A stretch of 32,000 nucleotides of DNA from Bacteroidales bacterium. GTDB taxonomy: Bacteria > Bacteroidota > Bacteroidia > Bacteroidales > UBA932. The DNA lies in contig JAFUFS010000051.1 in NCBI GenBank assembly GCA_017469745.1, positions 15,222 through 47,221 of the forward strand, given 5' to 3'. Positions 1-32,000 of the stretch are shown here, in pieces; the first letter of the stretch is position 1; each line of letters starts with the position of its first letter. The notes beneath the pieces are model-generated. The model was not told the origin of the DNA. It worked only from the letters and a program-made list of their open reading frames with translations, and did not search any database. Made by a program: the position numbers and the translations under genes.

Positions 1-440
1 TCTGGGCAGCTTGTGGCATCAACCGCGAAGACGGAAGACTGACAGCTCCGACAGCAATCAACAGCCAGGACATCCGGCTCTATGTCTGCCGCAAGGAAGG
101 TGCCTATGAATATATTGCCAAGGACAACGCCCTTGTCAAGGTAAGCGGCAAGGACCTTCGTCAGGATGTGGCGGCCGGCCAGGGGACTGTTGGAGAAGCT
201 CCCATGTTCCTCGTCCTGGTTGCCGATCTCAACAGGTACAACCGTCCCGGCCCAAGGACCGCCACCTTCGGTGCCATTGACTGCGGTTACGTGTCCCAGA
301 ACATCTGCCTGGCATGCGAGGCTCTCGGCCTTTCGACCGTCCCAAGGGCGATAATGAACCAGGATGTACTGAAAAAGGAGCTCGGCCTCAAGGAAGGCAT
401 GGAACTCCTTATCAATCATCCGGTTGGCTACAAGAAATAA
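1..440 (+). CDS. Nitroreductase-family protein, C-terminal fragment (5' end outside the window)
   Basis: Frame 3 is open from base 3 to TAA at 438-440. The translation (...INSQDIRLYVCRKEGAYEYIAKDNALVKVSGKDLRQDVAAGQG...APMFLVLVADLNRYN...FGAIDCGYVSQNICLACEALGLSTVPRAIMNQDVLKKELGL...INHPVGYKK) resembles the C-terminal half of FMN nitroreductase-fold proteins. Family assignment is by eye only. Confidence 0.65.
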   Translation, partial: WAACGINREDGRLTAPTAINSQDIRLYVCRKEGAYEYIAKDNALVKVSGKDLRQDVAAGQGTVGEAPMFLVLVADLNRYNRPGPRTATFGAIDCGYVSQNICLACEALGLSTVPRAIMNQDVLKKELGLKEGMELLINHPVGYKK

Positions 441-2329
441 TCAGGCTTTCAGTGTCCTGGCGGAATTAAGCACGGCCAGGACAAGGACTCCAACATCGGC
501 TACCACTGCCATCCACATGGTCGCAAGACCGGGGATGGCCAGGAGCAGGACAAGGACCTTCAGGGCAATCGAGAATGCAGTGTTCTCCTTAGCTATCCTG
601 AGGGTCTTTTTCGCTATCTTGATTCCCTCTGCGAGCTTGGAAGGCTTGTCGTCCATCAGCACCACGTCGGCAGCTTCAATGGCCGCATCTGAGCCGAGCG
701 CTCCCATTGCTATTCCTACATCTGCCCTCGCCAGGACAGGTGCGTCATTGATTCCGTCTCCGGCGAATGCCAGCTTCCTGCCTTCAGGTACTTCGGAGGC
801 CAGCCTTTCTACTTCCTCCACCTTGCCGTCGGGGAGAAGTCCGGCCTTATATTCATCGACTCCGGTGACTGAGGCGACTTCAGCTGCGACTTCCTCCTTG
901 TCTCCTGTGAGCATTACGGTCTTTCTGATTCCGCTTGCTTTCAATGCGCTGACGGCGGAAGCTGCATCGTCCTTGATCCTGTCGGAGACCACGATGTGGC
1001 CGGCATATTCACCGTCCAGGCTCACATGGACGATCGTTCCGCTCTTCTCGCAGTCCTTCCATGCAGCTCCGACAGCTTCCATCATCCTGCTGTTCCCGAC
1101 GCAGACATCATGGCCGTTCACCCTGGCCTTGACGCCCTGTCCGGCAACTTCCTCGACGGCTTCCACTGTGCATCCGTCCGCTTCTTCAGGATAAGCGTTC
1201 CTTAACGAGACTGCCACGGGGTGGGTTGAATATCTTTCCACATGGGCCGCGAGGTGGAGAAGCTCCTTTTCATCCAGCTTTTCAGGATGAACGGCGGTAA
1301 CCTCGAACACTCCTTGGGTGAGGGTGCCGGTCTTGTCGAAGACCACTGTGTCAAGCTTCGAAAGGGCCTCCAGATAATTGGATCCTTTCACCAGGATACC
1401 CTTTCTGGATGCTCCTCCGATTCCTCCGAAAAAGGCCAGAGGGATCGACACCACAAGGGCGCAGGGGCAGGAAACGATCAGGAAGGTGAGGGCCCTGTAG
1501 AGCCATTTGGCAAAGGTCCCTGCGAAATCGCCCGAAATCATCGGGGGAACGAAGGCCAGTACGAGGGCTGCGGCAACCACTATGGGGGTGTACACGCGTG
1601 CGAACCTTGTGATGAAGTTCTCGCTGGTGGATTTGTTGGAAGAGGCGTTCTCCACGAGGTCCAGGATCTTGGAGGCTGTAGACTCTCCGAATTCCTTGGT
1701 GACCCTGGCCCTGACCACTCCGGACAGGTTCACGCAGCCGGAGAGTATGCTGTCTCCTACGGAAATACCGCGGGGAACGCTTTCTCCGGTCAGGGCCACT
1801 GTGTCAAGGCTGGAACTTCCTTCAAGTACAGTTCCGTCCATAGGGACTTTCTCGCCGGGTTTCACCACTATTATTTCTCCGACCTTTACTTCTTCGGGGG
1901 AGACGCAGACCACTTCTCCGCCCCTTTCGACATTGGCAGTGTCCGGCCTGATGTCCATCAGTGATGAGATCGAATCCCTGCTTCTTCCTTCGGCCATCTC
2001 TTCGAAGAATTCTCCGACCTGGAAGAACAGCATCACGAAGACGGCTTCGGGAACTGGCTTTCAGCGCCTGGGAGGAAGCCGATGCAGAGGGCCCCGAGGG
2101 TGGCTATGCTCATCAGGAAGTCTTCGTCCAGCAGTTCTCCATGGAAGAGTTTCTCCGCAGCTTCCATAAGGGTTTCGCTGCCGGCGATGAGGTAGGGAAC
2201 CAGGAACAGAAGCAGTTCCTGCCACGTTTTAAGGTTTGCCGTCTTGCTTATCACGACAGCCGCTACCAGCAGCACTGCGCTCGCGACTATCTTCACCAAT
2301 CTCTCTTTGTTCTCCTTTTCCATTTTCAT
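441..2329 (-). pseudogene. P1B-type heavy-metal (Cd/Zn/Co-type, CPC motif) translocating ATPase, interrupted by a 1-nt frameshift (or sequencing error)
   Basis: Two adjacent minus-strand ORFs (2329..2033 and 2036..441) together give a complete ATPase. The N-terminal TM region ends ...GELLDEDFLMSIATLGALCIGFLPGAESQF. The second frame continues PEAVFVMLFFQVGEFFEE... and carries SCPCALV (CPC), DKTGTLT, STHPVA (HP) and GDGINDAP. The frames differ by one base at the GGG/CCC run at 2049-2051. The likely start is ATG 2329 (MKMEKENKERL). There is no N-terminal HMA domain. Confidence 0.8.
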
Positions 2330-21432: not shown

Positions 21433-22962
21433 TCAGATTTTCCCTAGGAAGTCGCTAAGATTGTCGCTGGCCTGGAGATTGAGCTTCTTGCGGAGACGGT
21501 ACCTGGCCATGTCGACGGATTTCGGTTCCATGGACATCATGAGTGAGATCTCCTTTGAGGACATTCCGATCCTGAGGAGCGAGGCAAGCCTTTTATCTGA
21601 GTTGGAAAGGTCCGGGTAGATGGATGAGAGTTTTGCGATGAAACCAGAGTTGATGTCATCTATCATCTTGTCGGCCTCGTCGTTTGTCCTGTTGAACTGG
21701 GAGATTGACGAATTGAGTTTCTTGAGGTGGCGCGTGGCTTCGTCCGAGTCCATCCCGTAGGCTTCCTTTATCCTGTCCTGGATGCCGGACAGGATCTCGT
21801 TTCGGCTGCGGACGTAGATTGCGAAGTTCTCAAGCTCTTTCTTGTTGAGATCCAGTTCCTTCTGCATCAGTTCCTTCTGCTTGTGGTTCGCTTTCCGGAA
21901 GACCCTGTAGGACACCGCCACCACGACACAGATCGCAGCCAGGATTGCGATGATTGCGGCCGCTATCTTCCTCCTAAGCCGGAACTCCCTTTCGCTCTGC
22001 TCCTGCTCTTTCCTGATGGTCTGGATGTTCTTTTCCATCAGGTTGACCTCGATGTTCTTCAGCCCTCCGGTCATGTCCTTGCTTTCGATCTGGTCCAGGA
22101 GGCTTTTCAGGTCCGAGTAGGCCCTGGAATACTCTCCCATGCCGGCATAGACCTCGGACCTGTAGCGGAGGTTGTCCATAGTCAGCTCCTGGGCGTTGGT
22201 CATGTCGGCGTAGACCTTTGCCTTTGAAAGGGCCTCCAGGGCGCTGGCATTGTCTCCTAGCCTCCTGTACTGGTAGCCGAGATTGTTGTAGTTCTCTCCG
22301 AGGACCCATGTCCTGCCGAGGGATTCGTTGATCGCTATCGCCTCCTTGAGCTGTTCGATTGTTGTGGCCGGATCCGCGTCGATGAAAGACATGTTGTTGA
22401 GATTCTGTGCGATCCCGATCTTGTTGCCTATGGCCCGGTTGAGCCTAAGGGACTCGGCGAAATACTTCCCGGCCATGCTATTGTCCGGTATCGCGATGTA
22501 GATCAGACCCTTGTTGTTGTTGCATCTCGCGATCGACGCCGTGTCCTTCCTATGTTCGGCAATGGCCTGAGCCTTCTCAAGGTACCTGAAGGCATGGTCG
22601 AAGTCCTTGATCTTCTGGTAGGAATAGCTTATGCTGAGGTAGATGTCGGCCATGAGGGAACTGTCCTCATCCGGGCAGTTCCTTTCAGCCTCGAGAAGAT
22701 ATTCATAACTGGTCACGTAATCGCCCATGTTGATGTAGGCATTTGCGATGAGGTACTGGGCTTCCGCGATCAGGGTCGGCTCCTTGGCCGAAGCCGCTTC
22801 CGTGAGTGCCTGCCCCGCGTGGTAGATTGCTTTGGCAGGATCCCGCGAGAGGTTCTCTCCTGCTTTGTCGAGGTGTTCGCGTACAGTCCATCCATCCTCC
22901 TTCGCAAGCAGCGGAAGAAGAGACAGGAAAAAAGCTATGAATATGGAAATGTATTTTTTCAT
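21433..22962 (-). CDS. Membrane-spanning TPR-repeat sensor fused to a C-terminal LuxR-type HTH (one-component regulator)
   Basis: 509 aa. It has an N-terminal signal/anchor (MKKYISIFIAFFLSLLPLLA) and about 270 aa of TPR-like repeats (AxxYxxxGxY patterns). A single internal TM follows (IAAAIIAILAAICVVVAVSY), then a coiled-coil and the LuxR/GerE HTH (SNSDKRLASLLRIGMSSKEISLMMSMEPKSVDMARYRLRKKL). Confidence 0.75.
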   Translation of the reverse strand: MKKYISIFIAFFLSLLPLLAKEDGWTVREHLDKAGENLSRDPAKAIYHAGQALTEAASAKEPTLIAEAQYLIANAYINMGDYVTSYEYLLEAERNCPDEDSSLMADIYLSISYSYQKIKDFDHAFRYLEKAQAIAEHRKDTASIARCNNNKGLIYIAIPDNSMAGKYFAESLRLNRAIGNKIGIAQNLNNMSFIDADPATTIEQLKEAIAINESLGRTWVLGENYNNLGYQYRRLGDNASALEALSKAKVYADMTNAQELTMDNLRYRSEVYAGMGEYSRAYSDLKSLLDQIESKDMTGGLKNIEVNLMEKNIQTIRKEQEQSEREFRLRRKIAAAIIAILAAICVVVAVSYRVFRKANHKQKELMQKELDLNKKELENFAIYVRSRNEILSGIQDRIKEAYGMDSDEATRHLKKLNSSISQFNRTNDEADKMIDDINSGFIAKLSSIYPDLSNSDKRLASLLRIGMSSKEISLMMSMEPKSVDMARYRLRKKLNLQASDNLSDFLGKI

Positions 22963-23026: not shown

Positions 23027-23905
23027 ATGCAGATCAAGGAAAAGTCATACAAGGTGGCGGGACACGTGTTCACGCTGAAGATGGAAGAGGACGATAAGCT
23101 TTGGAACGCCCTTGGCAACTACGAGCCTTTCGCGTGTGAGGCTGATTCCGATCCTGTGTTCACTCTCGAGCTTGTCCAAAAGGTTGAGACTGAGGGGAAG
23201 AAGGAACTTTATATCTCCGACCCTGAGGATGTCGAACAGAGGATTGACATCTACACCATGGAAGACGGCTACCTGTTCGAGATGGCTCCCTTCGGCAATG
23301 TGCCGGTGTGCGGTTGGCTCAGGGTGGATTCCGGTTTCACCACCGGTTCGCTCATGGTAGAAAAAGACAATCGCTTCTGCGTCAACAATGCCCTGATGCT
23401 GATGTATGCCTTCCGTACCGCGGATCTGGACACCCTTGAGATGCACGCCTCCGTGACCGTCAAGGACGGAAAGGGTTTCCTGTTCCTTGGCAAGAGCGGG
23501 ACCGGAAAGAGCACTCACAGCAGCCTCTGGCTTAAGAATATTCCCGGAACACATCTTTTGAATGACGACAATCCCATCGTGAGGATAGTTGACGGTCAGG
23601 TGAGGGTCTACGGCAGCCCTTGGAGCGGCAAGACCCCATGCTACCGCAATGAGGACTATCCGGCCGGGGCCTTCGTCAGGATCAACCGTGCTCCCTACGA
23701 TGCTATCCACAGGATGTCCATCCCCGAAGCTTTCGCATCGATTTCTTCGTCCTCGTCCGGCCTCAGGGCCATCCGGAGGATAGGAGACGGGCTCTATTCA
23801 ACACTGTCGTCGGTCGTCCAGACCGTGCCCTGCTATGTGCTCGACTGCCTTCCCGATGACGAGGCGGCCATAGTTTGTTCAAAGGAGGTTCTTGGCAATG
23901 CGTAA
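23027..23905 (+). CDS. HPr-kinase/phosphorylase C-terminal-domain-like P-loop protein (putative peptide/protein Ser kinase)
   Basis: I prefer ATG 23027 (MQIKEKSYKV...) over the track TTG 23006. The core HASVTVKDGKGFLFLGKSGTGKSTHSSLWLKNIPGTHLLNDDNPIVRI follows the HprK pattern H-x-S/V...G-x-G-x-L-x-x-G-x-S-G-x-G-K-S...L-x-x-DD. Confidence 0.6.
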   Translation: MQIKEKSYKVAGHVFTLKMEEDDKLWNALGNYEPFACEADSDPVFTLELVQKVETEGKKELYISDPEDVEQRIDIYTMEDGYLFEMAPFGNVPVCGWLRVDSGFTTGSLMVEKDNRFCVNNALMLMYAFRTADLDTLEMHASVTVKDGKGFLFLGKSGTGKSTHSSLWLKNIPGTHLLNDDNPIVRIVDGQVRVYGSPWSGKTPCYRNEDYPAGAFVRINRAPYDAIHRMSIPEAFASISSSSSGLRAIRRIGDGLYSTLSSVVQTVPCYVLDCLPDDEAAIVCSKEVLGNA

Positions 23906-24413
23906 GTTCGCCGAGTGGATCCTGAGGATGATGCGCCATGTCGTGCAGCCTTTCCTGAAGAAGCCTGCTTCTCCCGGAGTGGTTTCCGACAAGCGGACTA
24001 TCGGGGACGACAACTATTTCATGGCGGTACGCATGTTGCTTGACGAGGGTAAGGAAGTCCTGTTCACTCCCAAGGGCGACAGCATGCTGCCGTTCATCAA
24101 GAACGGACGCGATTCCGTGGTGCTGGCTTCGTTGTCCAGGCCGCTGGAAGTGGGAGACATAATCCTTGTCAAGATAGGCCCCAAGTACATCATGCACAGG
24201 ATTTTCGCCCTTGACGGAGACAGGATCACCTTGATGGGCGACGGAAACATAAAGGGCAAGGAGCACTGTACCTTGAAGGATGTGATCGGAATTGTGACCG
24301 AGATCCACAAGGAGAGCGGAAAGGTTGTCAAGCCCGGGAAAGGAAGGTTCTGGAGAGCCATCCGGCCGTTGAGATTATTTTTTTTGGTATTTTATAAAAG
24401 AGTGATATTATGA
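23898..24413 (+). CDS. S24/S26-clan serine peptidase (signal-peptidase/SipW-like)
   Basis: ATG 23898 overlaps the upstream stop (ATGCGTAA). It has the PKGDSMLPFIKNG nucleophile motif, then EVGDIILV and YIMHRIF (general-base region), and a hydrophobic C-terminal tail. Confidence 0.62.
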   Translation: MRKFAEWILRMMRHVVQPFLKKPASPGVVSDKRTIGDDNYFMAVRMLLDEGKEVLFTPKGDSMLPFIKNGRDSVVLASLSRPLEVGDIILVKIGPKYIMHRIFALDGDRITLMGDGNIKGKEHCTLKDVIGIVTEIHKESGKVVKPGKGRFWRAIRPLRLFFLVFYKRVIL

Positions 24414-24679
24414 GGATTATCGAAGGTTTCGTCCTTAGGCCCCTCGTCGGGGAGTACATAGTGATCGGTGAGGGAATCGCCCAGATCAACTTCAACAAGA
24501 TGGTTTCTCTGAACCCTACGGCCGCCTATCTTTGGGAAAGCGTCGAAGGCAAGGATTTCACAGTCGAAGACCTGACCAAGCTCCTTACCGACAAGTATGA
24601 AGTGACGGAGGAGCAGGCCGCCGCCGATGCCGCAGCCCTTGCGGCGAAATGGATCGAGGCCGGAATAGTCTCTGAATAG
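24410..24679 (+). CDS. PqqD-family protein (RiPP recognition element-type peptide chaperone)
   Basis: 89 aa with an ATGA overlap onto the peptidase stop. SLNPTAAYLWESVEGKDFTVEDLTKLLTDKYEVTEEQAAADAAALAAKWIEAGIV matches the PqqD-like pattern LN-x-TAA-x-W...G-x-x-T-V-x-(D/E)-(L/I)...Y-(E/D)-V. Confidence 0.75.
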   Translation: MRIIEGFVLRPLVGEYIVIGEGIAQINFNKMVSLNPTAAYLWESVEGKDFTVEDLTKLLTDKYEVTEEQAAADAAALAAKWIEAGIVSE

Positions 24680-24695
24680 TTTTACGTCCGGGACG

Positions 24696-26372
24696 ATGAA
24701 GGATTTCAAGACATGCATTAAGGGGCTCTGGAGGATGTCCAAGCCTGTGCTGGGAAGGGACCTTGTCACCGTCCTGATAGGAGGGGTACGCATTGCCGCC
24801 TCCCTCTCGTTCGTGTGGATCTGCAAACGTCTGGTGGACATTGCTACCGGTGTCAGTGACGTAGCTCTCGCACCTCACGTCTGGATAATGATCGGTATCA
24901 TCCTGACACAGATCATCTGCGGACTTGCATCCAATTACTGGGGCGCCTACAACACCATCAAGACTCGCAACCAGCTGAGACTCGGGATGTTCGCCCATGT
25001 GCTGAACTCCCGCTGGAATGGTCGTGAGGCCTTCCGTTCAGGAGACACGATCAACCGTCTTGAGGAGGACATCAGGGTTCTCACCGACCTTATCTGCGGC
25101 AGTTTTCCCGATGTGATCATCACCATCTGCCAGTTGCTTGCCGCTTCGGTCTACCTCTTGACGATGGCACCGTCGCTTCTCTGGGTCCTTATCATCCTGA
25201 TGGCTGCCGCCGTGATCGGCTCCAAGATGTATTTCAAGAAGATCCGTGAGCTTACGTCAAAGATACGCTCACTGGACAGCGAGGTTCAGCAGCTGGAGCA
25301 GGAGAATCTTCAGAACAGGGTTCTGGTCCTGACCCTTTTTGGCGTCGGGAATATAGTTTCGCGTCTCTCCGGTCTTCAGGAGACTATCAAAAAGAACACA
25401 ATCACCAGGCTCAATTACAATGCGGTTGCCAGGGGCTTCATGAACATCGGTTTCATGGGCGGATATGCCGCAGCCTTCCTTTGGGGAATATACGGCATCA
25501 AGTCCGGAGCGGTGACCTACGGTATGATGACCGCCTTCCTGCAGCTGGTCGGCCAGGTCCAGCGTCCTATTGCCAGCCTGGGTACGCAGGTACCTGCTTT
25601 CATCAAGGCGCTTACCTCGATAGAGCGTCTGCTGGAACTAGAGGACCTCAAGGTTGAGCGCTATCACGGTGACGTCCTCTTCGAAGGAGCCCCCGGGATC
25701 CGTGTCTCCGATGTCTCGTTCGCTTACTGTCATCCTGAGCGCAGCGAAGGATCTTCCAGTCGCAGCGAAGGATCTGCTCCTCGCCTCGTCCTCGACAACT
25801 TCTCCCACGACTTCGCTCCCGGTACGCTGACGGTAATCGCCGGTCCGACCGGAGTAGGGAAGAGTACCCTCACAAGGCTCATGCTTGGGCTGCTGCATCC
25901 GACAGAGGGAACCGTCAACCTATATTCCCGGAACGGCAAGTCCCACACTGCCGACGTGGACACTCGCTGCAATTTCACCTACGTTCCTCAGGGCAACAGC
26001 CTCCTAAGCGGTACGATCAGGGAGAATATGCTTCTGGTAAATTCGGAAGCTACTGATGAGCAGATCGTCGAGGCTCTAAAGCTGGCGGCTGCTGAGTTCG
26101 TGCTGGGTCTTCCCGACGGTCTTGACACGGTCTGCGGAGAGAGCGGCACAGGCCTTTCCGAAGGTCAGTGCCAGAGGATTGCCATAGCCAGGGCCCTGCT
26201 GCACCGTGGAGGAATCATGATCCTTGACGAGGCCACCTCCGCCTTGGATGTCGAGACCGAAGAACGTCTCCTCGACAACATCCACACCCATCTCGCCGGC
26301 GACAAGACCATCGTCTTCATCTCCCACCGTCCCGCCGCCACCCGTATCGCCGACGACGTCGTGAACCTGTAG
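24696..26372 (+). CDS. ABC exporter half-transporter (N-terminal 6-TM domain + C-terminal ATPase), no C39 peptidase domain
   Basis: 558 aa. Walker A is GPTGVGKST, the signature is LSEGQCQRIAIARAL, Walker B is ILDEATSALD, and the H-loop is FISHR. It carries an atypical insert, CHPERSEGSSSRSEGSAP, between NBD strands 1 and 2. Confidence 0.9.
   Translation: MKDFKTCIKGLWRMSKPVLGRDLVTVLIGGVRIAASLSFVWICKRLVDIATGVSDVALAPHVWIMIGIILTQIICGLASNYWGAYNTIKTRNQLRLGMFAHVLNSRWNGREAFRSGDTINRLEEDIRVLTDLICGSFPDVIITICQLLAASVYLLTMAPSLLWVLIILMAAAVIGSKMYFKKIRELTSKIRSLDSEVQQLEQENLQNRVLVLTLFGVGNIVSRLSGLQETIKKNTITRLNYNAVARGFMNIGFMGGYAAAFLWGIYGIKSGAVTYGMMTAFLQLVGQVQRPIASLGTQVPAFIKALTSIERLLELEDLKVERYHGDVLFEGAPGIRVSDVSFAYCHPERSEGSSSRSEGSAPRLVLDNFSHDFAPGTLTVIAGPTGVGKSTLTRLMLGLLHPTEGTVNLYSRNGKSHTADVDTRCNFTYVPQGNSLLSGTIRENMLLVNSEATDEQIVEALKLAAAEFVLGLPDGLDTVCGESGTGLSEGQCQRIAIARALLHRGGIMILDEATSALDVETEERLLDNIHTHLAGDKTIVFISHRPAATRIADDVVNL
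25737..25778 (+). repeat. Two tandem 21-nt units (core CGCAGCGAAGGATCT x2) in frame inside the ABC ATPase domain
   Basis: Unit 1 is GAGCGCAGCGAAGGATCTTCC (25737-25757) and unit 2 is AGTCGCAGCGAAGGATCTGCT (25758-25778). They share 16 of 21 nt, including a 15-nt identical core, and encode ERSEGSS/SRSEGSA. Confidence 0.8.
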
Positions 26373-26605
26373 GCCCTTTCTTGCCTGAAGCCGCATGCGG
26401 CCACTGTCCTTCATCCATCATCTGCCACATCCAGCGGCCATCTTCTTAACCATTCACAACCCGACAGTGCGGTTCTGTTACGGAATACTCTGATAATCTG
26501 AATATTAAGCAATTTAACCGTCTCGATTTTGAGACCGCTCAATTATACAATTGGCTGGTAATTAAATATTTACATCACAGCATTCCTTTCCCAGTTTTTA
26601 TTTAC

Positions 26606-26613
26606 TATTTTTG
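26606..26613 (+). promoter_or_regulatory. Candidate -7 promoter box (TATTTTTG) for the carbonic anhydrase gene
   Basis: TAnnTTTG match 28 nt upstream of ATG 26641, in an AT-rich 268-nt intergenic region. Confidence 0.3.
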
Positions 26614-26640
26614 TTCCACTAATCTTGGTGCAAAGTTTTT

Positions 26641-27183
26641 ATGATAGACGAAATCCTTCAGTACAACCGGGAGTTCGTGGCGAGAAAAGGCTACGAGCCG
26701 TTTATTACAGACAAATATCCTTCAAAGAAGCTTGCGGTGCTGACATGCATGGACACCCGCCTGACCGAGCTGTTGCCCAAAGCGCTCGGACTCAGGAACG
26801 GCGATGCAAAGATCATCCGCAATGCCGGAGGCCTGGTCCTGACTTCTACAGATTCAGCCATCCGCTCTTTGCTTGTAGGAATATATGAGCTTGGTGTTGA
26901 AGAGATTATGGTTGTCCATCATTCCAATTGCGGAGCCTGCCACATGTGCTTTGAAGAATTCAAGCCGCTGATGCTGGGAAGGGGAGTCTCCCCTGAAGCC
27001 ATTAAGGCTTTTGAAGAGGCCGGCTGTGACATTGAGGAATGGCTTGAAGGCTTCCATGACACCGAGGCTTCTGTCCGCCGTACTATGGCTGCGATCACCG
27101 GCCATCCACTTGTTCCAAAGGATGTTACCGTCCGCGGTTTCATCATAGATTCCGTCACCGGTGCTCTGACGGAACTTAAATAA
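26641..27183 (+). CDS. Beta-class carbonic anhydrase
   Basis: 180 aa. The zinc ligand and catalytic motifs are CMDTR (C-x-D-x-R) and HHSNCGA (H-x-x-C). The size and layout resemble short Cab-type beta-CAs. Confidence 0.82.
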   Translation: MIDEILQYNREFVARKGYEPFITDKYPSKKLAVLTCMDTRLTELLPKALGLRNGDAKIIRNAGGLVLTSTDSAIRSLLVGIYELGVEEIMVVHHSNCGACHMCFEEFKPLMLGRGVSPEAIKAFEEAGCDIEEWLEGFHDTEASVRRTMAAITGHPLVPKDVTVRGFIIDSVTGALTELK

Positions 27184-27312
27184 ACAGAAATTTTCAAAAG
27201 AAACCCCCTCCTAGGTCCGGTCGCCCCTTGGTGGTTTCCGGAAGATTTGGTAATCTTGCCAGCGAAAGGCCAGGCTTGACCTGACCTTATCCTTGACCTT
27301 AAACTTTAGATT

Positions 27313-28175
27313 ATGCAAATCTTTGCCAACCTGCTCCACGACGATACTTTCAAGATTGTCGTCGGGGCGCCGGGAAATGAGACCTGTTCTGTACTTCGGA
27401 AGAAGGGGAGCAGTTCATCGTAGAGATGCAGTTCTCTGGCCAGGCTACCTTCAAAGAACGGATGCTGGTGTACGCGACGTATCCGATCCGTGCGCAGATG
27501 GACAAGAGGCTGAAAGAAATAGAGAAACTGACATCAGGGGATGAAGAGGCTGCGGAAGCGAGTGGCAGGAAGCCCGACAAGATGTATTACGGCTTGCACC
27601 CGATCTATGTTATCAGCCTTCTGAACTTCAGTCTTCGTCATGAGAACAATGAGGCGTTGGACGAAGGGATGATCAGCCGGTATTCGATTCGGAATGACCG
27701 CAATGGAGAACTGATGACAGATGCACTGCACTTCATCTTTCTGGAACTTGGGCGGTTGGGCTTGAGGAAGAGGGACTACGCAAAGTGCAGGACACCGCTT
27801 CAGAAGATGGCATATTCGTTGAAATATATGCACGAGCTTGGCGCTGCTCCAGCAGGGTTCGAAGATGGGTTTCAACGGATGCTTTACAAGGCCAGCGAGC
27901 TGGCCGGAATGACACAAGAACAACGAAGACAATACGATAGAGCCATGACAACAAAGATTGACATAATTGCCCAGCAGGAATATGCCAGCGAGGAAGGACT
28001 CGCCGAGGGGCTCAAAAGAGGCCAAAGACAAGGTCGCCAGGAAGGTCGCGCAGAAGGTGCAGAACTCAAGTCTGAGGAGATTGCACGAAAGATGATTGAT
28101 TCGAACATTCCATATGAAACCATTAGATTATGCACAGGCCTATCAGATGCAAAGATCCGTAGCCTTATGGAATAA
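27313..28175 (+). pseudogene. Rpn-family recombination-promoting nuclease / PD-(D/E)XK putative transposase, N-terminal internal deletion plus frame change
   Basis: ATG 27313 gives MQIFANLLHDDTFKIVVGAPGNE, the family-typical N-terminus, then runs out of frame. The main frame opens only after TGA 27378-27380 with DLFCTSEEGEQFIVEMQFSGQATFKERMLVYATYPI..., which is the nuclease core. Roughly 45-50 aa that normally lie between the two pieces are missing. The C-terminus (EGLAEGLKRGQRQGRQEGRAEG...IPYETIRLCTGLS) is typical of the family. Confidence 0.62.
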
Positions 28176-28257
28176 ATTGAGCAATCAAACAATTAGACTC
28201 ACATATCCGTGCTTTCTAGGGCTTTTTTGCCTAGCAACCGCACCTGTAATAACGAAT

Positions 28258-28292
28258 CCGTGCTGTCAAGGTAGACCGGCACGGTGTTTTTT
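28258..28292 (+). terminator. Candidate rho-independent terminator downstream of the Rpn-like pseudogene
   Basis: A CCGTGC (28258-28263) / GCACGG (28279-28284) stem with a 15-nt loop is followed by TGTTTTTT. The stem is short and the loop is large, so the call is weak. Confidence 0.3.
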
Positions 28293-28554
28293 ATTATGTC
28301 TGTTCGGCCCGTTGTTCAGATCATTGTTGATAACTTTTTTTCATGATCATCCGGATGCAAAATCCACATTGGAGGCCCTTAATTTGAATCATTTTGATTA
28401 GCCACTTGCAGAACCTTCATTTTCTGTCCTTTAAGTGTAACTTAAAGATTTGGAATTCACCCGAAAAATTCATAAAAATGCAAGACTTTGGCTTTGAAAA
28501 ATTAACCGCATTTTTAGGCAAAATTTATTAATCATAAAATTCAAAATTTGTAGT

Positions 28555-28689
28555 ATGAAAAAGAAACTAATGTATGAAGTTCCCGACGCGGAACTGATCG
28601 AGCTGAAAGCTCAAGGAGTCTTTATGGCCTCAGTAGAAGGCGAGTCTATTCAATCACTCGAGTATGACTCTGATGAGTTGAATTGTTAA
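28555..28689 (+). CDS. Unannotated 44-aa ORF (below the ORF-track size cut-off): MKKKLMYEVPDAELIELKAQGVFMASVEGESIQSLEYDSDELNC
   Basis: It runs from ATG 28555 to TAA 28687-28689, 14 nt upstream of the lipoprotein ATG 28704 on the same strand. Its composition matches the AT-rich island. It contains a leader-like Y-x-x-P-x-x-E-L-I-E-L motif. There is no independent evidence that it is translated. Confidence 0.3.
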   Translation: MKKKLMYEVPDAELIELKAQGVFMASVEGESIQSLEYDSDELNC

Positions 28690-28703
28690 TTATGTGTAGA
28701 CTT

Positions 28704-30782
28704 ATGAAAAAGAATTTATTCTTCATAGCTAGCACCATCTTTATGGTTCTTGCTGTTACTAATTGTTCTAAAGAGATTATTGATCCTTCAAATGATAATG
28801 ACATTCAAAAGGGATCTTCTTTTGAGCTTATTGCCACACCAGTTGAGACAAGAACAGAGAATGATGGCATGAACACTAAATGGGTCAGCGGTGACGCGAT
28901 AAATGTGTTCCATGCTGAAGAAGAAACTACTAACTATGTTAGTGATGGCGAATTTATAATCACAGATGTTTCTACCAATCGATTCCAAGGAACTGTTTCT
29001 GAAACTCTTGAAGCTGACAAGAAGTATGATTGGTATATGTTCTATCCTTATAGCTCCCATATTACTACTCCCGCTAATACGAACGCTGGTTATACTGTTG
29101 TTGGTAGTAGGAATAATGGAAATCAGACGCAGGCTGGTAATAATAACAAGGCCCATATTGCGGGCCCCAATTATCCACTTATTGGAGTACTTCCCTCTGT
29201 TGCAAGTACGGAGGTTCCTAAAGTGAGCGTGAATCAGGTGTGTTCCTTCATAGAGTTTAATGTTAAGAATACTTCGAGTGAGGACCTTGTCGTTAAAAGT
29301 ATTGTCTTTACAGCCACGGAAGACATTGTTGGAACGTATTATATAAATTTCATCGATCCTGAGAATGTAGTGTTCACTCCCAGTACCAATGATGATGGAA
29401 CGTATACTTATGCCTCTGAGAAGGCGGTCCTGAATGTTACTGATGGAGAGACAATTGCTAATGGTAATAGCGCAGCCTTTTATATTGGAATAAAGCCTTT
29501 CAGTGTTTCTTCCGGAACGTTGAAGGTTGCTGTCAATGGGTATGAGAAGGAAATAAATATCACCAAGAGTACCTCATTCTCCGCAGGAAAAATCAAGAAG
29601 ATAAACTTCGATTATAACAAGGAGGCGGAAGTATTACCTGTTTATGACAATACTTCGGCAGACTATTCGACTGGCTTCGAGGATGGCTTTACTGCCGGAA
29701 CAGCTTACAACAATACGCTTGAGAAGCTTGATGGTCCAGAGAATGAGCAGTGGGCATCATACTACGGAACCGTTTCCACGAGTTCAAAACTCAATGGTAA
29801 TAATTCAATGCAAATGCGTTGGTATACTTCAGCTGCTAAAAATCTTGGATATGCCCGTACAAACTTTAAAGTTGCTAAAGTTGGTTCTGTCTCTTTCTCA
29901 GCGGCCGCCACTAACAATTTGAATCTTTCTCTGTTCTACATGACTGAAAAAGATGAAGATTGGGTTCTAGCTCAAACGTTTACCCTGACATCGACATCGA
30001 AGCAGTATAGTTATGAGTTCTCTTCTCCTATTGAGAATGCCCAGTTGAAATTCCAGATTGCTCTTCCTGCGACAAATCCTTCAAGCAATTCGAATGTGCG
30101 AATAGATGATGTTGTCGTTTCTAAGGATGTACCTGTTGTGGAACTGGCTTCCATCGCCATTACTAAGAATCCCACCAAGACTACGTATACCCTAGGTGAA
30201 GAATTTGTTTTTGACGGAGAGGTAACTGCTACCTATTCCGATGGGTCTACAGTCGTTGTTACTGATGATATTGAATCTGACGGCGCAACAGTAGTAGCTA
30301 CTGTGGGTGTAGATAAGACCGTTACTATCTCTTACACTGACGGTGAAATTACTAAGACTTCTACGTATGAGATTACTGTAAACGACCCTGATGCTTCTTA
30401 TATAGAGGTTCCTTCTCAGACGATCACCTTCTCTGAACTTGGGTATGACAATGGTGCCGAGGTAAGCCAGGTTGATGGGACCAACTGTGGCATAAACTTC
30501 AATAAGGGAACAAATTCTAATACGCCGAAGTATTATACCTCAGGTAATGCAGTTCGTGCATATGGTGGAAACTTCTTTATTGTTACAGTTGAAGAGGGTT
30601 ATCAGATCAGTTCCATAGAGCTGACCTTTGGCTCTAGCGATGGCTCAAATGCTATTACCACGGATAAGGGAACATATTCCGATGGTAAATGGACTGGTTC
30701 CGTTCAGAATGGAGGTTCAGTTACCTTCACTATCGGAGGAACCACTGGAAATAGGAGAATCAGTTCTATTAAGATTAACTGA
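28704..30782 (+). CDS. Large surface lipoprotein: fimbrillin-like N-terminal region, beta-sandwich (choice-of-anchor/CBM-like) domain, bacterial Ig-like domain, unknown C-terminal domain
   Basis: ATG 28704 gives the lipobox MKKNLFFIASTIFMVLAVTNC (the track start TTG 28683 is less likely). The Ig-like segment is LASIAITKNPTKTTYTLGEEFVFDGEVTATYSDGSTVVVTDD...TVTISYTDGEITKTSTYEITV. It ends at TGA 30780-30782, which is in frame with the next ORF. Confidence 0.7.
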   Translation: MKKNLFFIASTIFMVLAVTNCSKEIIDPSNDNDIQKGSSFELIATPVETRTENDGMNTKWVSGDAINVFHAEEETTNYVSDGEFIITDVSTNRFQGTVSETLEADKKYDWYMFYPYSSHITTPANTNAGYTVVGSRNNGNQTQAGNNNKAHIAGPNYPLIGVLPSVASTEVPKVSVNQVCSFIEFNVKNTSSEDLVVKSIVFTATEDIVGTYYINFIDPENVVFTPSTNDDGTYTYASEKAVLNVTDGETIANGNSAAFYIGIKPFSVSSGTLKVAVNGYEKEINITKSTSFSAGKIKKINFDYNKEAEVLPVYDNTSADYSTGFEDGFTAGTAYNNTLEKLDGPENEQWASYYGTVSTSSKLNGNNSMQMRWYTSAAKNLGYARTNFKVAKVGSVSFSAAATNNLNLSLFYMTEKDEDWVLAQTFTLTSTSKQYSYEFSSPIENAQLKFQIALPATNPSSNSNVRIDDVVVSKDVPVVELASIAITKNPTKTTYTLGEEFVFDGEVTATYSDGSTVVVTDDIESDGATVVATVGVDKTVTISYTDGEITKTSTYEITVNDPDASYIEVPSQTITFSELGYDNGAEVSQVDGTNCGINFNKGTNSNTPKYYTSGNAVRAYGGNFFIVTVEEGYQISSIELTFGSSDGSNAITTDKGTYSDGKWTGSVQNGGSVTFTIGGTTGNRRISSIKIN

Positions 30783-30854: not shown

Positions 30855-32000
30855 GTGAGTTCGTCAGGGGCAACCCTGACCGCTTCTTTCTCGGGAGTTT
30901 CAACCGTCAATAAGCCAACAGACGTCTTATTCAAATACGGAACCTCTTCAGACAATTTGAATCAGACAATCGGTGCGATTGAGTCGATTAATTCGGGAAG
31001 CGGTGATTTTACTGCTATCTTGACTGAACTCAGTAGTGGCACGGCTTATTATTTCCAGGCCTACATGACGGTCTGGGATGAGGAGGCCAACGAGTACAAG
31101 ACGATTTCCGGTGACGTAATTAAGTTCGAAACAAACCCGAAAGGCGAGACTGGAGTCCAGCGTGGCTATTATGAGTTGCCATCTATGAGCACTGTAAAGA
31201 ATGGTGAGTATCTTGTAAGCTCCACAGATCCTAATACCTACTTTGCCTATCACATGTGCGCCGGCGGAGAAACATATTCATTCAACGGCAAACTGATTAC
31301 GGCACGTAATTACACGGTTTGTTTCAGTGGCGAAGACCATGTTGCATATTGGGTAGCGGCTCCTAGACATACCATGTATAATGGGAACAACAGGACAGAT
31401 AATTACAAAGCTGACCCGGACATCCCAAGTGATGTGCAATATCAGGCTGATAAGATAGGAGATGGTTGCAACAGAGGCCATATCTTAGGATCTGCTGAAC
31501 GAGGTGTCTCCAGTGCTACGAATAATCAGGTTTTCTATTTCAGCAATATAGCTCCGCAATTGCAGTCTGGTTTCAATACAGGCGGAGGTGGGTGGAATGA
31601 ACTTGAGGATTGGGTAGACGGTCAAGTATGTGCTGATACGCTCTATCAGGTTGTCGGTTGCTATTTCAAAGACTATACTGATGGCTATAAAAACAGCGTC
31701 AAGGCCAAGAAAATCAGCTACGGTGGCAGAACCGATGTCAGTTTCCCGACCATGTTCTACTACGTGCTGATCCGTACTAAAAAAGGTAATTCTGGCAAGG
31801 CGTTGAAGGATTGTTCAGCTGATGAACTCAAGTGTGCAGCTTTCGTCCGTTCGCACACCAATAACCTTAAGGGGCAGAAAGTTACTTCTGCAGAGATGAT
31901 GAGTGTGGCTGACCTAGAGAAAATAACGGGTTTCACCTATTTCGTCAATGTCCCTAATGCGCCAAAGAACACGGTCAATGCTTCCGATTGGGGACTGTAA
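30855..32000 (+). CDS. DNA/RNA non-specific endonuclease (Serratia NucA / Endonuclease_NS family, beta-beta-alpha-Me) preceded by an Fn3/Ig-like domain; probably continuous with the upstream lipoprotein frame
   Basis: The active-site region is GCNRGHILGSAER (RGH motif), followed by FYFSNIAPQ and GGGWNELEDW. The stop TAA is at 31998-32000, the window end. The only available start is GTG 30855. There is no signal peptide, and the frame is open back to the TGA at 30780-30782, so the true 5' limit may be 28704. Confidence 0.8.
   Translation: MSSSGATLTASFSGVSTVNKPTDVLFKYGTSSDNLNQTIGAIESINSGSGDFTAILTELSSGTAYYFQAYMTVWDEEANEYKTISGDVIKFETNPKGETGVQRGYYELPSMSTVKNGEYLVSSTDPNTYFAYHMCAGGETYSFNGKLITARNYTVCFSGEDHVAYWVAAPRHTMYNGNNRTDNYKADPDIPSDVQYQADKIGDGCNRGHILGSAERGVSSATNNQVFYFSNIAPQLQSGFNTGGGGWNELEDWVDGQVCADTLYQVVGCYFKDYTDGYKNSVKAKKISYGGRTDVSFPTMFYYVLIRTKKGNSGKALKDCSADELKCAAFVRSHTNNLKGQKVTSAEMMSVADLEKITGFTYFVNVPNAPKNTVNASDWGL

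Follow-up and report, generated by a model that had tools for sequence, protein, structure and literature searches.

Organisation of the locus

The window analysed here is a 32,000-nucleotide stretch of a contig (JAFUFS010000051.1) from a Bacteroidales bacterium. It carries a four-gene cassette and, downstream on the same strand, a small gene for a 44-residue peptide (P0001) that directly precedes a lipoprotein gene (Table 1). An earlier reading of the letters alone (the sequence-only reading) was correct about the extent of the small gene, which runs from an ATG at 28555 to a TAA at 28687–28689, ends 14 nt before the ATG of the lipoprotein gene and starts 2,182 nt after the end of the exporter gene. 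Between the cassette and P0001 lie genes for a carbonic anhydrase and a PD-(D/E)XK protein.

Table 1 Features of the window and the evidence on which they were assigned.
Feature	Position	Strand	Evidence
HprK-like (ScmC-type) kinase	23027..23905	+	Weak NCBIfam/Pfam matches: HprK_rel_A, ScmC, PEPCK P-loop
Signal-peptidase-like (S24/S26 clan) presumed leader peptidase, archaeal/ER type	23892..24413	+	Peptidase_S24 and weak TIGR02228 sigpep_I_arch matches
Discrete PqqD-type leader-recognition protein (RRE)	24410..24679	+	PF05402, E 2.6e-16
MsbA-like ABC exporter, without peptidase domain	24696..26372	+	ABC_membrane and ABC_tran; best NCBIfam match MsbA_lipidA
Non-coding stretch, presumably promoter and 5' region shared by the peptide and lipoprotein genes	28435..28554	+	About 97-99% identical among species-complex strains
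Small gene, 44-residue precursor peptide P0001, stop included	28555..28689	+	Sequence, translation, family conservation, codon-level selection
Constant head, presumed leader, residues 1-26	28555..28632	+	Two alignments; position table of 52 peptides
Hypervariable acidic tail, presumed core or most of core, residues 27-44	28633..28686	+	Tail alignments, 52-peptide table
Partner lipoprotein, 692 aa	28704..30782	+	Lipobox signal peptide; AF2 model; Foldseek

Orthologues of the kinase are on record as PF27840 (ScmC). In 73 of them, five positions of the Walker A motif G-x-S-G-T-G-K-S-T (residues 155–163) are invariant and two are conserved in 95%, while the N-D-D at 179–181 is invariant; apparent ‘kinase’ frames of 746 residues arise from a GcpE gene that lies upstream and in frame. 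Residues S64, H102 and D117 of the peptidase are invariant in 19 orthologues. Among solved structures its closest relatives are SEC11C and SEC11A (E 3e-4); bacterial SPase and LexA rank behind them. The PqqD-type protein gives a profile match to TfuB1 (6jx3, E 3e-6), and its N35 and D73, invariant in 27 orthologues, align with N33 and D70 of LppB (9x8z chain B, numbering offset 18), the residues that hold the leader Pro and Tyr in the pathway for linear polyphosphorylated peptides (LPP), LppA/K/B/S/D/N, of Paenibacillus alginolyticus (Popov et al., Nat Commun 2026, PMC13381572). The exporter has 558 residues and no C39 domain, and its gene accompanies the other three at most of the 80 cassette loci. 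The cassette members retain their catalytic and binding residues.

The sequence-only reading had likened the head of P0001 to the leaders of lasso systems. PF13471, the lasso B2 protease, has no match in the 98.5%-complete genome, and neither B2 nor a macrolactam cyclase (Asn-synthetase-like C protein) was found among the nine open reading frames scanned between 23006 and 32000; the search for the cyclase was limited to the window because a housekeeping AsnB would confound a genome-wide search. These results speak against a lasso pathway, and on gene content the closest system is the cyclase-less LPP pathway. A nucleotidyltransferase (LppN, PF14907-type) was not found in the cassette, either in scans of the window frames or in the 80 cassette loci, and the one PF14907 match that the genome contains is on a different contig (C15:102795-103508).

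A family of small genes with a constant head and a hypervariable tail

Eleven metagenome proteins match P0001, and Pfam and NCBIfam scans of P0001 and nine relatives returned no family. The family profile has matches in 117 of 301 genomes of the same taxonomic family and matched 2,206 representative clusters, all short, in a library of 1.84 billion proteins. The family is unnamed, comprises more than 2,200 clusters at 50% identity and has relatives in rumen and gut Bacteroidales.

Conservation of the reading frame had been proposed as a check on the gene, and the frame is conserved: among 26 family members from 20 genomes the differences are biased towards synonymous ones, the mean nucleotide difference at codon positions 1, 2 and 3 being 0.51, 0.29 and 0.66, respectively. 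The invariant Tyr is encoded by TAT in 13 members and by TAC in 13, all four codons are in use for the invariant Pro, and there are no in-frame stops, compared with 68 and 92 in the other two frames. At the level of codons these statistics show selection acting on the protein, and on this evidence the open reading frame is a real gene. Conservation of the head inside the species complex was rejected as evidence of selection; the DNA is near-identical there, including 120 nt of non-coding sequence, and the claim therefore rests on the wider family only. P0001 is absent from the gene calls in the window. Gene callers overlook such 40-codon genes, so a whole layer of such peptides is missing from current annotations.

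The Tyr and Pro of a YxxP motif are present in 52/52 peptides, a count that is partly built in by an extraction pattern requiring both residues; their invariance in the 30-row alignment is independent of that pattern. In P0001 they are Tyr7 (codon 28573–28575) and Pro10 (28582–28584). The motif is followed by alternating acidic and hydrophobic residues, with Glu at Y+6 and Y+9 in 40 of the 52 peptides, and by a Ser at Y+18 to Y+20 in 49, which in P0001 is Ser26 (28630–28632; Y+19). The head consensus is Y-E-A-P-x-x-E-V-I-E-L-K-x-E-G-x-I-C-x-S. In agreement with the sequence-only reading, the head has the form of the YxxP leaders that PqqD-type proteins bind, and the PqqD-type protein of the window keeps the Asn and Asp of LppB. 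The Tyr-bearing paeninodin leader that had been given in support was not confirmed, and it conflicts with the WxxP of paeninodin-type leaders (PMC13381572). One relative (G190) has the head fused straight onto a 300-residue Fib_succ_major cargo without a signal peptide, which would support a head that acts as a leader in cis. It is the sole true fusion; frames of 198–337 residues around some other family matches are stop-to-stop artefacts, and the peptides there have 46–60 residues.

DNA identity among strains is lost at about codon 19–20. The tails of the 52 peptides have a median length of 17.5 residues and a mean net charge of -4.4, and are rich in Gly, Asn and Pro. An acidic, Ser-containing tail ending in Cys had been described for P0001; the acidity holds across the family, but 21 of the 52 tails have no Ser and only one ends in Cys, and the Ser-rich, Cys-ending tail is, by this comparison, a peculiarity of the P0001 allele. 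The conserved Ser is instead Ser26, at the head-tail junction. The core of LppA is phosphorylated at Ser3 and carries a conserved Ser at Y+18 (PMC13381572), and by analogy Ser26 is in the position of this phosphorylated residue. Family precursors have 38–60 residues, with up to 24 per genome.

The partner lipoprotein

A downstream gene starts at -32 to +45 nt in 24 of the 26 family members, the other two lying at contig ends. All four family members in this genome are paired with a lipoprotein gene, and so are the cassette-adjacent members. At least 22 of the 24 downstream genes encode a lipobox (21 by pattern match, together with the ..AVTNC of the window lipoprotein), while two of the downstream proteins (L035 and L038) have an ordinary signal peptide only. 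The suggestion that P0001 is a cofactor of a lipoprotein/nuclease locus thus stands for the lipoprotein, but the nuclease is not a conserved partner.

In the AlphaFold2 (AF2) model, the window lipoprotein consists of a type V pilin-like N-terminal domain (residues 30–305; bases 28791–29618), a disordered linker and beta-rich, Ig-like C-terminal domains, with a pLDDT above 90 over residues 60–300. The top Foldseek matches are BF1858 (E 6e-9), BACUNI_00621, BACOVA_04980, BF2867, PG0181 and Mfa4. At the sequence level, there is a weak Big_3 match, and a homologue (P0125) matches Pfam Mfa_like_1 at 43 bits. Pfam scans of ten partner lipoproteins were near-empty, giving one weak Mfa_like_1 match and one Fib_succ_major match. 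An HMM of the N-terminal domain matched only 3 of the 26 partners, and the shared fold was therefore tested by structure in two of them. The model of the second, from another contig (C43) of the same genome, gives the same pilin matches plus Mfa3; both are predicted to have the type V pilin fold although they have no sequence-level match to each other, and in both models the pilin-like domain is accompanied by adhesin-type domains. The alignment of partners contains a conserved T-K/R-T after the first strand, which hints at a pilin maturation site. The idea that the tail fills the pilin groove as a donor strand was considered and rejected, the tails being acidic, rich in Gly, Asn and Pro and not strand-like.

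Between strains the tail and the lipoprotein are replaced together. The link between peptide and lipoprotein is drawn only from gene order and this joint replacement, and physical linkage could yield both. The pairing was found in no paper, including PMC13381572, and searches of the literature returned no small peptide partner described for type V pilins.

Expression signals

The arrangement of the pair suits an alternative in which P0001 is a cis-acting upstream cistron: through coupling, re-initiation or arrest, its translation would set how the lipoprotein gene is translated or transcribed, and the peptide would have no function of its own. The gap between the genes is short (11–21 nt in most pairs) and holds no terminator. 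A GGAGG-type ribosome-binding sequence (unusual in this phylum) is found before the lipoprotein ATG in 14/25 pairs and before the peptide ATG in 1/25, and the 150 nt before the peptide ATG contain a Bacteroidetes -7 box (TAnnTTTG) at 14 of 26 loci in relatives, compared with 2.2 expected. The pair in the window, however, has no GGAGG, and coupling needs neither an invariant Tyr-x-x-Pro, nor a conserved Ser, nor a tail that is always acidic; the co-occurrence of the family with the cassette, its adjacency to it and the natural fusion of head to cargo are also left unexplained. We consider this alternative unlikely, and coupling may coexist with a function of the peptide itself. The upstream stretch in the window contains no exact -7 box, and an Rfam scan of 27900–28900 returned no family. 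A scan for sigma-70 promoters and terminators, which is ill-suited to Bacteroidetes promoters, gave no more matches than in shuffled sequence.

Association of the peptide family with the cassette

Among the 301 genomes of the taxonomic family, 107 have both the peptide and the kinase, 10 the peptide only, 32 the kinase only and 152 neither. The association is upheld inside each of five genera (Cochran-Mantel-Haenszel p = 6e-13, a value that exaggerates the strength of the association, because genomes of one family are not independent samples). Outside the family, a kinase orthologue is present in 20 of 396 genomes, and these include 8 of the 10 that are positive for the peptide, from six families. 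The 32 kinase-only genomes may reflect the limit of sensitivity of the peptide profile.

Proximity gives the same picture. In 1.54 Mb around 80 cassettes there are 21 family members, compared with 3.5 expected, and at eight loci a member on the strand of the cassette is no more than about 1.2 kb away from it, compared with 0.43 expected. Members are found right next to the cassette in at least five genera, in differing arrangements. Most members are distant from a cassette, those inside the 20-kb windows being 21 of about 370. The sequence-only reading had named P0001 a candidate substrate of the kinase/RRE/peptidase/exporter operon and had proposed co-occurrence with the operon and with the lipoprotein as a check. 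The family tracks both, and the phyletic pattern together with the adjacency in several genera argues for the candidate substrate. The substrate and lipoprotein-partner ideas are not mutually exclusive.

P0001 might nevertheless serve the pilin-like lipoprotein alone, perhaps as an escort in the cytoplasm or periplasm, and not be processed by the cassette; its nearness to the cassette would then be a coincidence or a result of shared ancestry. Pairing with the lipoprotein is more constant than nearness to the cassette, the syntenic loci examined are all from close relatives, and three genomes (99%, 96% and 92% complete), in which no kinase, PqqD or peptidase was found, keep high-scoring peptides. 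Against this, the peptide has no signal peptide and would need a dedicated exporter to reach the lipoprotein. Its head has exactly the two residues that are gripped by RREs of this type, and an association that holds within genera and across families, with a 6- to 18-fold enrichment beside cassettes, would be hard to explain. This too we regard as improbable.

Proposed pathway and role

The explanation that we consider probable, by analogy with the LPP pathway, is that P0001 is paired with the lipoprotein and is processed by the cassette into a small, linear, modified peptide of the LPP type. The head (residues 1 to about 23) would be the leader, and its Tyr7-x-x-Pro10 and the following beta-strand would be bound by the PqqD-type protein encoded 4 kb upstream. 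The bound peptide would be presented to the HprK-like kinase, with Ser26 the most likely site of phosphorylation, and to the Ser/His signal-peptidase-like protease, which would cut a few residues before Ser26. The MsbA-like transporter would then export the acidic product of 20 residues across the inner membrane. One cassette would serve the four precursors scattered over this genome, each probably co-transcribed and inherited with the lipoprotein gene that follows it. In the cell envelope the exported peptide most likely acts on its own lipoprotein or together with it, the two forming a matched pair, whether through binding, assembly or display.

Pherotype loci such as comQXP and agr are exchanged between strains as units, and the joint swapping of tail and lipoprotein resembles them; a hypervariable core behind a constant leader is also typical of RiPP antimicrobials and pheromones. 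The processed peptide could accordingly be secreted as a bacteriocin or signal and have no functional relation to the lipoprotein, with only a promoter in common, or the lipoprotein could be its immunity protein or receptor. We think this quite improbable: unlike known membrane-active bacteriocins, the tails are short and strongly acidic, contain much Gly, Asn and Pro and are generally free of Cys, and an ABC half-transporter in the inner membrane is not enough by itself to pass the outer membrane. As many as 24 precursors in a genome, with an adhesin-like lipoprotein for each, fit a structural partnership better than a signal. The remaining alternative, which the sequence-only reading had itself raised, is a chance, untranslated frame in an AT-rich spacer; such a frame would be short and missed by gene callers, as P0001 is, but it is scarcely credible in view of the protein-level conservation with synonymous turnover, the lack of in-frame stops and the size of the family.

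If the precursor is indeed matured by the cassette and paired with its lipoprotein, a more specific proposal can be made, which we offer tentatively and consider doubtful. The exported, probably phosphorylated acidic peptide would be a specific ligand or assembly cofactor of the adjoining type V pilin-like adhesin, the pairs would be strain-variable modules swapped by recombination within the constant head, and the single cassette would provide Bacteroidales surface adhesins with a maturation route not known before. This proposal, if true, would give a first biological role to the LPP class, whose products have no known function (PMC13381572). The LPP enzyme core, described only in 2026 and as ‘restricted to the Bacillota’, is present here in uncultured rumen Bacteroidales, with a very large precursor family. 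The tie between precursor and lipoprotein, with two modelled partners predicted to be pilin-like adhesins, yields a concrete hypothesis on the purpose of such peptides. It also suggests that type V pilin-like surface proteins, which have a bearing on adhesion and colonisation in gut and rumen Bacteroidales, have an accessory factor that has gone unrecognised.

Comparison with known systems

The cassette shares with the LPP pathway an HprK-like kinase, a discrete PqqD-type RRE, an archaeal-type Ser/His signal-peptidase-like peptidase and an MsbA-like exporter; like that pathway, it comes with no lasso B2 protease in the genome and no lasso cyclase among the window frames scanned. The precursors share an N-terminal YxxP leader, a conserved Ser some 18–19 residues beyond the Tyr and a C-terminus that varies strongly, and the RRE residues that hold the leader Tyr and Pro are conserved. 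The two differ in phylum, Bacillota there and Bacteroidota here, and in the nucleotidyltransferase LppN, which belongs to the core cluster there and is missing from the cassette here. Beyond YxxP and the Ser, the head departs from the LppA leader consensus, YxxPxVLxHQxIxFETxxS (PMC13381572). The LPP precursor lies inside its cluster, whereas the precursors described here are short, scattered and mostly far from the cassette, each directly before a lipoprotein gene that is predicted to be pilin-like in the two cases modelled.

In the systems for phosphorylated lasso peptides of the paeninodin and pseudomycoidin type, too, a [Y/W]xxP leader is read by a PqqD-type RRE; an HprK-like kinase, which phosphorylates a precursor Ser there, and an ABC exporter are shared as well. 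They differ in having a B2 protease, which has no match in this genome, and a cyclase, which was not found among the window frames scanned, in the class of leader peptidase and in a leader Trp in place of the Tyr found here. The phosphorylated Ser is C-terminal there, whereas the conserved Ser is at the head-tail junction here.

In the prochlorosins, ProcM serves many scattered ProcA precursors with a constant leader and hypervariable cores, and the economy of one machine for many scattered precursors is shared. Their lanthionine chemistry and enzymes are unrelated, however, and their precursors are not paired with lipoprotein genes.

With the type V pili (the FimA/Mfa1 superfamily, including Mfa3, Mfa4 and the BF1858-type ‘cell adhesion proteins’) the partner lipoprotein shares a lipoprotein signal and, in the models, a two-lobed fold. 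Type V pili polymerise through strand exchange mediated by a protease, with shaft and anchor subunits. The pilin-like domain is followed here by Ig-like or BspA-type LRR domains, and no shaft or anchor pilin genes adjoin the partner in the window.

Regulatory leader peptides and upstream cistrons such as TnaC, SecM and SpeFL are likewise very short open reading frames located a few bases before the gene that they accompany. The conserved part of the family described here is, by contrast, an RRE-type recognition motif, and the family tracks a cassette encoded elsewhere in the genome.

The small ORF and its neighbourhood

Re-translation of 28555-28689 (+), from ATG to TAA, gave the same 44 residues as the sequence-only reading, and the 14 nt that it placed between the stop of this ORF and the ATG at 28704 were confirmed. 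The ORF starts 2,182 nt 3′ of the stop of the ABC exporter gene, on the same strand, and the protein that begins at 28704 has 692 residues and a signal peptide with a lipobox at its end. Gene identities around the ORF were assigned with Pfam and NCBIfam.

Features around the small ORF in the window and further peptide genes of the same genome
Feature	Position	Strand	Assigned from	Partner lipoprotein
HprK-like kinase	23027-23905	+	Pfam/NCBIfam	
S24/S26-type peptidase	23892-24413	+	Pfam/NCBIfam	
PqqD	24410-24679	+	Pfam/NCBIfam	
MsbA-like ABC exporter	24696-26372	+	Pfam/NCBIfam	
beta-carbonic anhydrase	26641-27183		Pfam/NCBIfam	
PD-(D/E)XK (Rpn-type) protein	27426-28175		Pfam/NCBIfam	
small ORF	28555-28689	+	sequence, translation	
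lipoprotein	28704-30782	+		
non-specific endonuclease	from 30855		Pfam/NCBIfam	
further family member	C43:13992-14120			778 aa
further family member	C18:about 1826-1978			602 aa
further family member	C41:about 37296-37436			at least 163 aa

When 26373-28554 and 30855-32000 were compared with the corresponding loci of three relatives (L003, L007 and L011), the stretch from the exporter to GDPD was found to be a strain-variable island. The PD-(D/E)XK gene is missing in L011, the endonuclease gene is missing in L011 and shorter in L003, and a 309-aa gene (function unassigned) lies between the exporter and carbonic anhydrase genes in all three relatives and not in the window. A 509-aa TPR protein is encoded divergently from the kinase (21433-22962, minus strand) and occupies the same spot in the three relatives; in 80 other genomes no such gene was seen next to the cassette.

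A large family of short peptides

The window peptide (P0001) matches 11 metagenome proteins, 10 of which are identical to it over the first 18 residues while the remaining one differs at one residue; past residue 18 all 11 split into unlike acidic tails. The contigs of these matches carry the same locus from close relatives in rumen samples, so that alone they are weak proof of a gene. In the DNA alignment strains share about 98% identity over the 120 nt before the ORF and over its first ~19 codons, followed by an abrupt break inside the ORF that is a recombination boundary and not a mark of selection.

A first family profile picked up small open frames in further genera. A second, made from 30 members, matches 117 of the 301 genomes of the same taxonomic family, a single genome having as many as 24 copies; in a library of 1.84 billion proteins it matches 2,206 representative clusters, every one short. 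Codon-level conservation, which the sequence-only reading had proposed as a check, was found: across 26 members, drawn from 20 genomes, nucleotides differ by 0.51, 0.29 and 0.66 at the first, second and third codon position, the two codons of the invariant Tyr are used 13 times each, all four codons of the invariant Pro are in use, and there are no in-frame stops vs 68 and 92 in the other two frames. On sequence grounds, the wider-family profiles and the codon data settle that the small ORF is a genuine gene and belongs to a large family. None of the family members scanned matched a Pfam or NCBIfam model.

In 52 distinct members the constant N-terminal head has the consensus Y-E-A-P-x-x-E-[VIL]-[IVF]-E-[LVM]-K-x-E-G-x-[ILF]-[CAM]-x-S, with a Ser at Y+18..20 in 49 (S26 in the window). 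The tail has a median length of 17.5 residues, is rich in Asp, Gly, Glu and Asn, has a negative net charge in every member (mean -4.4) and in 35 of the 52 carries an aromatic residue within its last three positions. The Ser-rich tail ending in Cys, noted from the window alone, holds for that allele but not for the family, as the terminal Cys is unique to the window (1/52) and 21 tails are Ser-free, eight of which lack Thr as well. Only the junction Ser is a universal candidate phospho-acceptor. In one 70-residue member (P0133) a stretch of 26 residues over the head and early tail is directly repeated within the peptide, which may reflect a genuine tandem duplication or an error of assembly.

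Association with the kinase cassette

Peptide and kinase occur together in 107 of the 301 genomes; 10 carry the peptide without the kinase, 32 the kinase without a peptide match, and 152 lack both, profiles having limited power to detect peptides of 40 residues. As related genomes are not independent, the association was stratified by genus; it persisted in all five genera with good sampling, each tested singly (one-sided Fisher p 0.04 to 5e-6), with a Cochran-Mantel-Haenszel p of 6e-13 across genera, although kinship still inflates independence after stratification. In an order-wide sample (401 genomes, 137 families), 10 genomes outside the family are peptide-positive, and eight of these, from six families, fall within the 20 genomes that carry a strong kinase ortholog, vs 0.5 expected by chance. 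The suggested co-occurrence of peptide and cassette is thus observed both within genera and across other families.

In 80 genomes, picked on kinase score alone, the 20 kb surrounding the kinase show the four-gene cassette to be conserved. The 1.54 Mb surveyed around these cassettes hold 21 family ORFs vs 3.5 expected from each genome's own density, and at eight loci (0.43 expected) the ORF lies on the same strand within about 1.2 kb of the cassette. These ORFs occupy varied places (3′ of the exporter or of the peptidase, ahead of the kinase, or between exporter and kinase) in at least five genera. Kinase, PqqD and peptidase were not found in three genomes (99%, 96% and 92% complete) with high-scoring peptides; since the genomes are metagenome bins of uncultured rumen Bacteroidales, absences are soft.

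At two loci GcpE (IspG) and the cassette kinase share one open frame of 746-749 aa (L065:9593-11830, minus strand; L068:8193-10439, plus strand), through a fusion or the loss of a stop codon. The sole signal-peptidase-like match of G162, a genome with peptides and without kinase or PqqD, lies at C17:26713-27195 (-) and forms part of a 619-aa open frame, where it may be fused to another domain.

Pairing with lipoproteins

A gene of at least 100 codons starts -32 to +45 nt from the peptide stop in 24 of the 26 first-collected members, the other two lying at contig ends. At least 22 of the 24 downstream genes have a lipobox (21 by pattern match and the VTNC of the window); those of L035 and L038 have an ordinary signal peptide only. 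The genome of the window has one cassette and four family members, on contigs C7, C43, C18 and C41, each with a lipoprotein gene 2-20 nt downstream. This pairing supports the alternative of a lipoprotein partner, which had been raised beside that of a cassette substrate; the two ideas are compatible. Cassette-touching members also have lipoprotein genes directly after them, and in some genomes kinase, peptidase, PqqD, exporter, peptide and lipoprotein form one row.

A Bacteroidetes -7 box precedes the peptide gene at 14 of 26 loci (2.2 expected), and a terminator scan found none between peptide and lipoprotein genes; the two genes are probably one transcription unit. In 14 of 25 pairs (L013-L041) a GGAGG-type ribosome-binding sequence, a kind unusual in Bacteroidota, precedes the lipoprotein ATG by 4-20 nt, and only one of the 25 has such a sequence ahead of the peptide ATG. 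This bias hints at translational coupling or re-initiation. The window pair (28690-28703) has no GGAGG.

As the partner lipoproteins are very diverse in sequence, two of them were compared by fold. The AF2 model of the window lipoprotein has a mean pLDDT of 76.8 (>90 over residues 60-300), and its N-terminal domain matches BF1858, BACUNI_00621, BACOVA_04980, BF2867, PG0181 and Mfa4. These structures are of the type V pilin superfamily, and the modelled domain appears type V pilin-like; a homolog of the lipoprotein passes Pfam Mfa_like_1. The C43 partner gave no match to an HMM of the window domain, and its model has the same structural matches together with the tip pilin Mfa3; BspA-type leucine-rich repeats accompany its type V pilin-like domain. 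Among lipoprotein homologs the C-terminal parts differ, with Ig-like, fn3, LRR and lectin-type domains among those present.

Within the species complex, tail and lipoprotein are exchanged together while head and upstream DNA stay constant. Between the window and L011 the tails are 81% identical, the pilin-like domains 62% and the C-terminal parts unrelated (27%); where the tails of a pair are unrelated, its pilin domains are only 23-36% identical. The window/L011 pattern fits a match of tail to pilin domain, and physical linkage would account for it equally well.

Proposed pathway and comparison with linear polyphosphorylated peptides

Linear polyphosphorylated peptides (LPP) were described in Bacillota by Popov et al. 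2026 (PMC13381572). The precursor LppA has the motif YxxPxVLxHQxIxFETxxS and a variable C-terminus; an HprK-like kinase places several phosphates on core Ser3; LppB is a discrete RRE in which D70 holds the leader Tyr and N33 the leader Pro; and LppS is an RRE-dependent, archaeal-type signal-peptidase-like leader peptidase (Ser/His/Asp). The system also has an MsbA-like exporter and a nucleotidyltransferase (PMC13381572).

In the window cassette, S64, H102 and D117 of the peptidase are invariant among orthologs, and among solved structures the peptidase is nearest to SEC11C and SEC11A rather than to bacterial SPase or LexA. N35 and D73 of PqqD, also invariant, align with N33 and D70 of LppB (9x8z), the best solved match being the lasso RRE TfuB1. 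Walker A and N-D-D motifs are conserved across 73 kinase orthologs, and the exporter is MsbA-like by NCBIfam. No lasso B2 protease was found in the window's genome.

From the conserved Asn/Asp and the LppB structure, the PqqD protein would bind the head as a beta-strand via Tyr7 and Pro10; by analogy, the kinase would phosphorylate Ser26, and the Ser/His peptidase would cut a few residues before it. The ABC transporter may then carry the acidic product, about 20 residues, to the periplasm. Given the probable co-transcription, the peptide would most likely meet its own pilin-like adhesin in the envelope. A role of the head in cis-acting recognition or export is supported by a natural head-cargo fusion in another genome (G190, L016:1489-2472, plus strand), where a 327-residue ORF without signal peptide opens with a complete family head (..Y-E-T-P-Q-V-E-L-I-E-V..S-G) followed by a Fib_succ_major/Lcl_C domain, a type also present at the C-terminus of the partner lipoprotein of the L018 member.

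In the literature searched, neither the peptide family nor an LPP-like cassette from Bacteroidales is described, and no small peptide partner is reported for type V pilins; LPP is stated as restricted to Bacillota, and Bacteroidota and lipoproteins are unmentioned (PMC13381572). The window cassette matches the LPP system part by part in peptidase, RRE, kinase and exporter, but differs in having no nucleotidyltransferase, the only PF14907 (NTP_transf_5, LppN-like) gene of the genome lying at C15:102795-103508 (-), away from the cassette and all four peptide genes. The phosphorylated Ser of LppA is at Tyr+18, whereas the conserved Ser of the Bacteroidales family is at Tyr+19. By this comparison the peptide and cassette would form a variant of the LPP kind, outside the Bacillota range given in PMC13381572.
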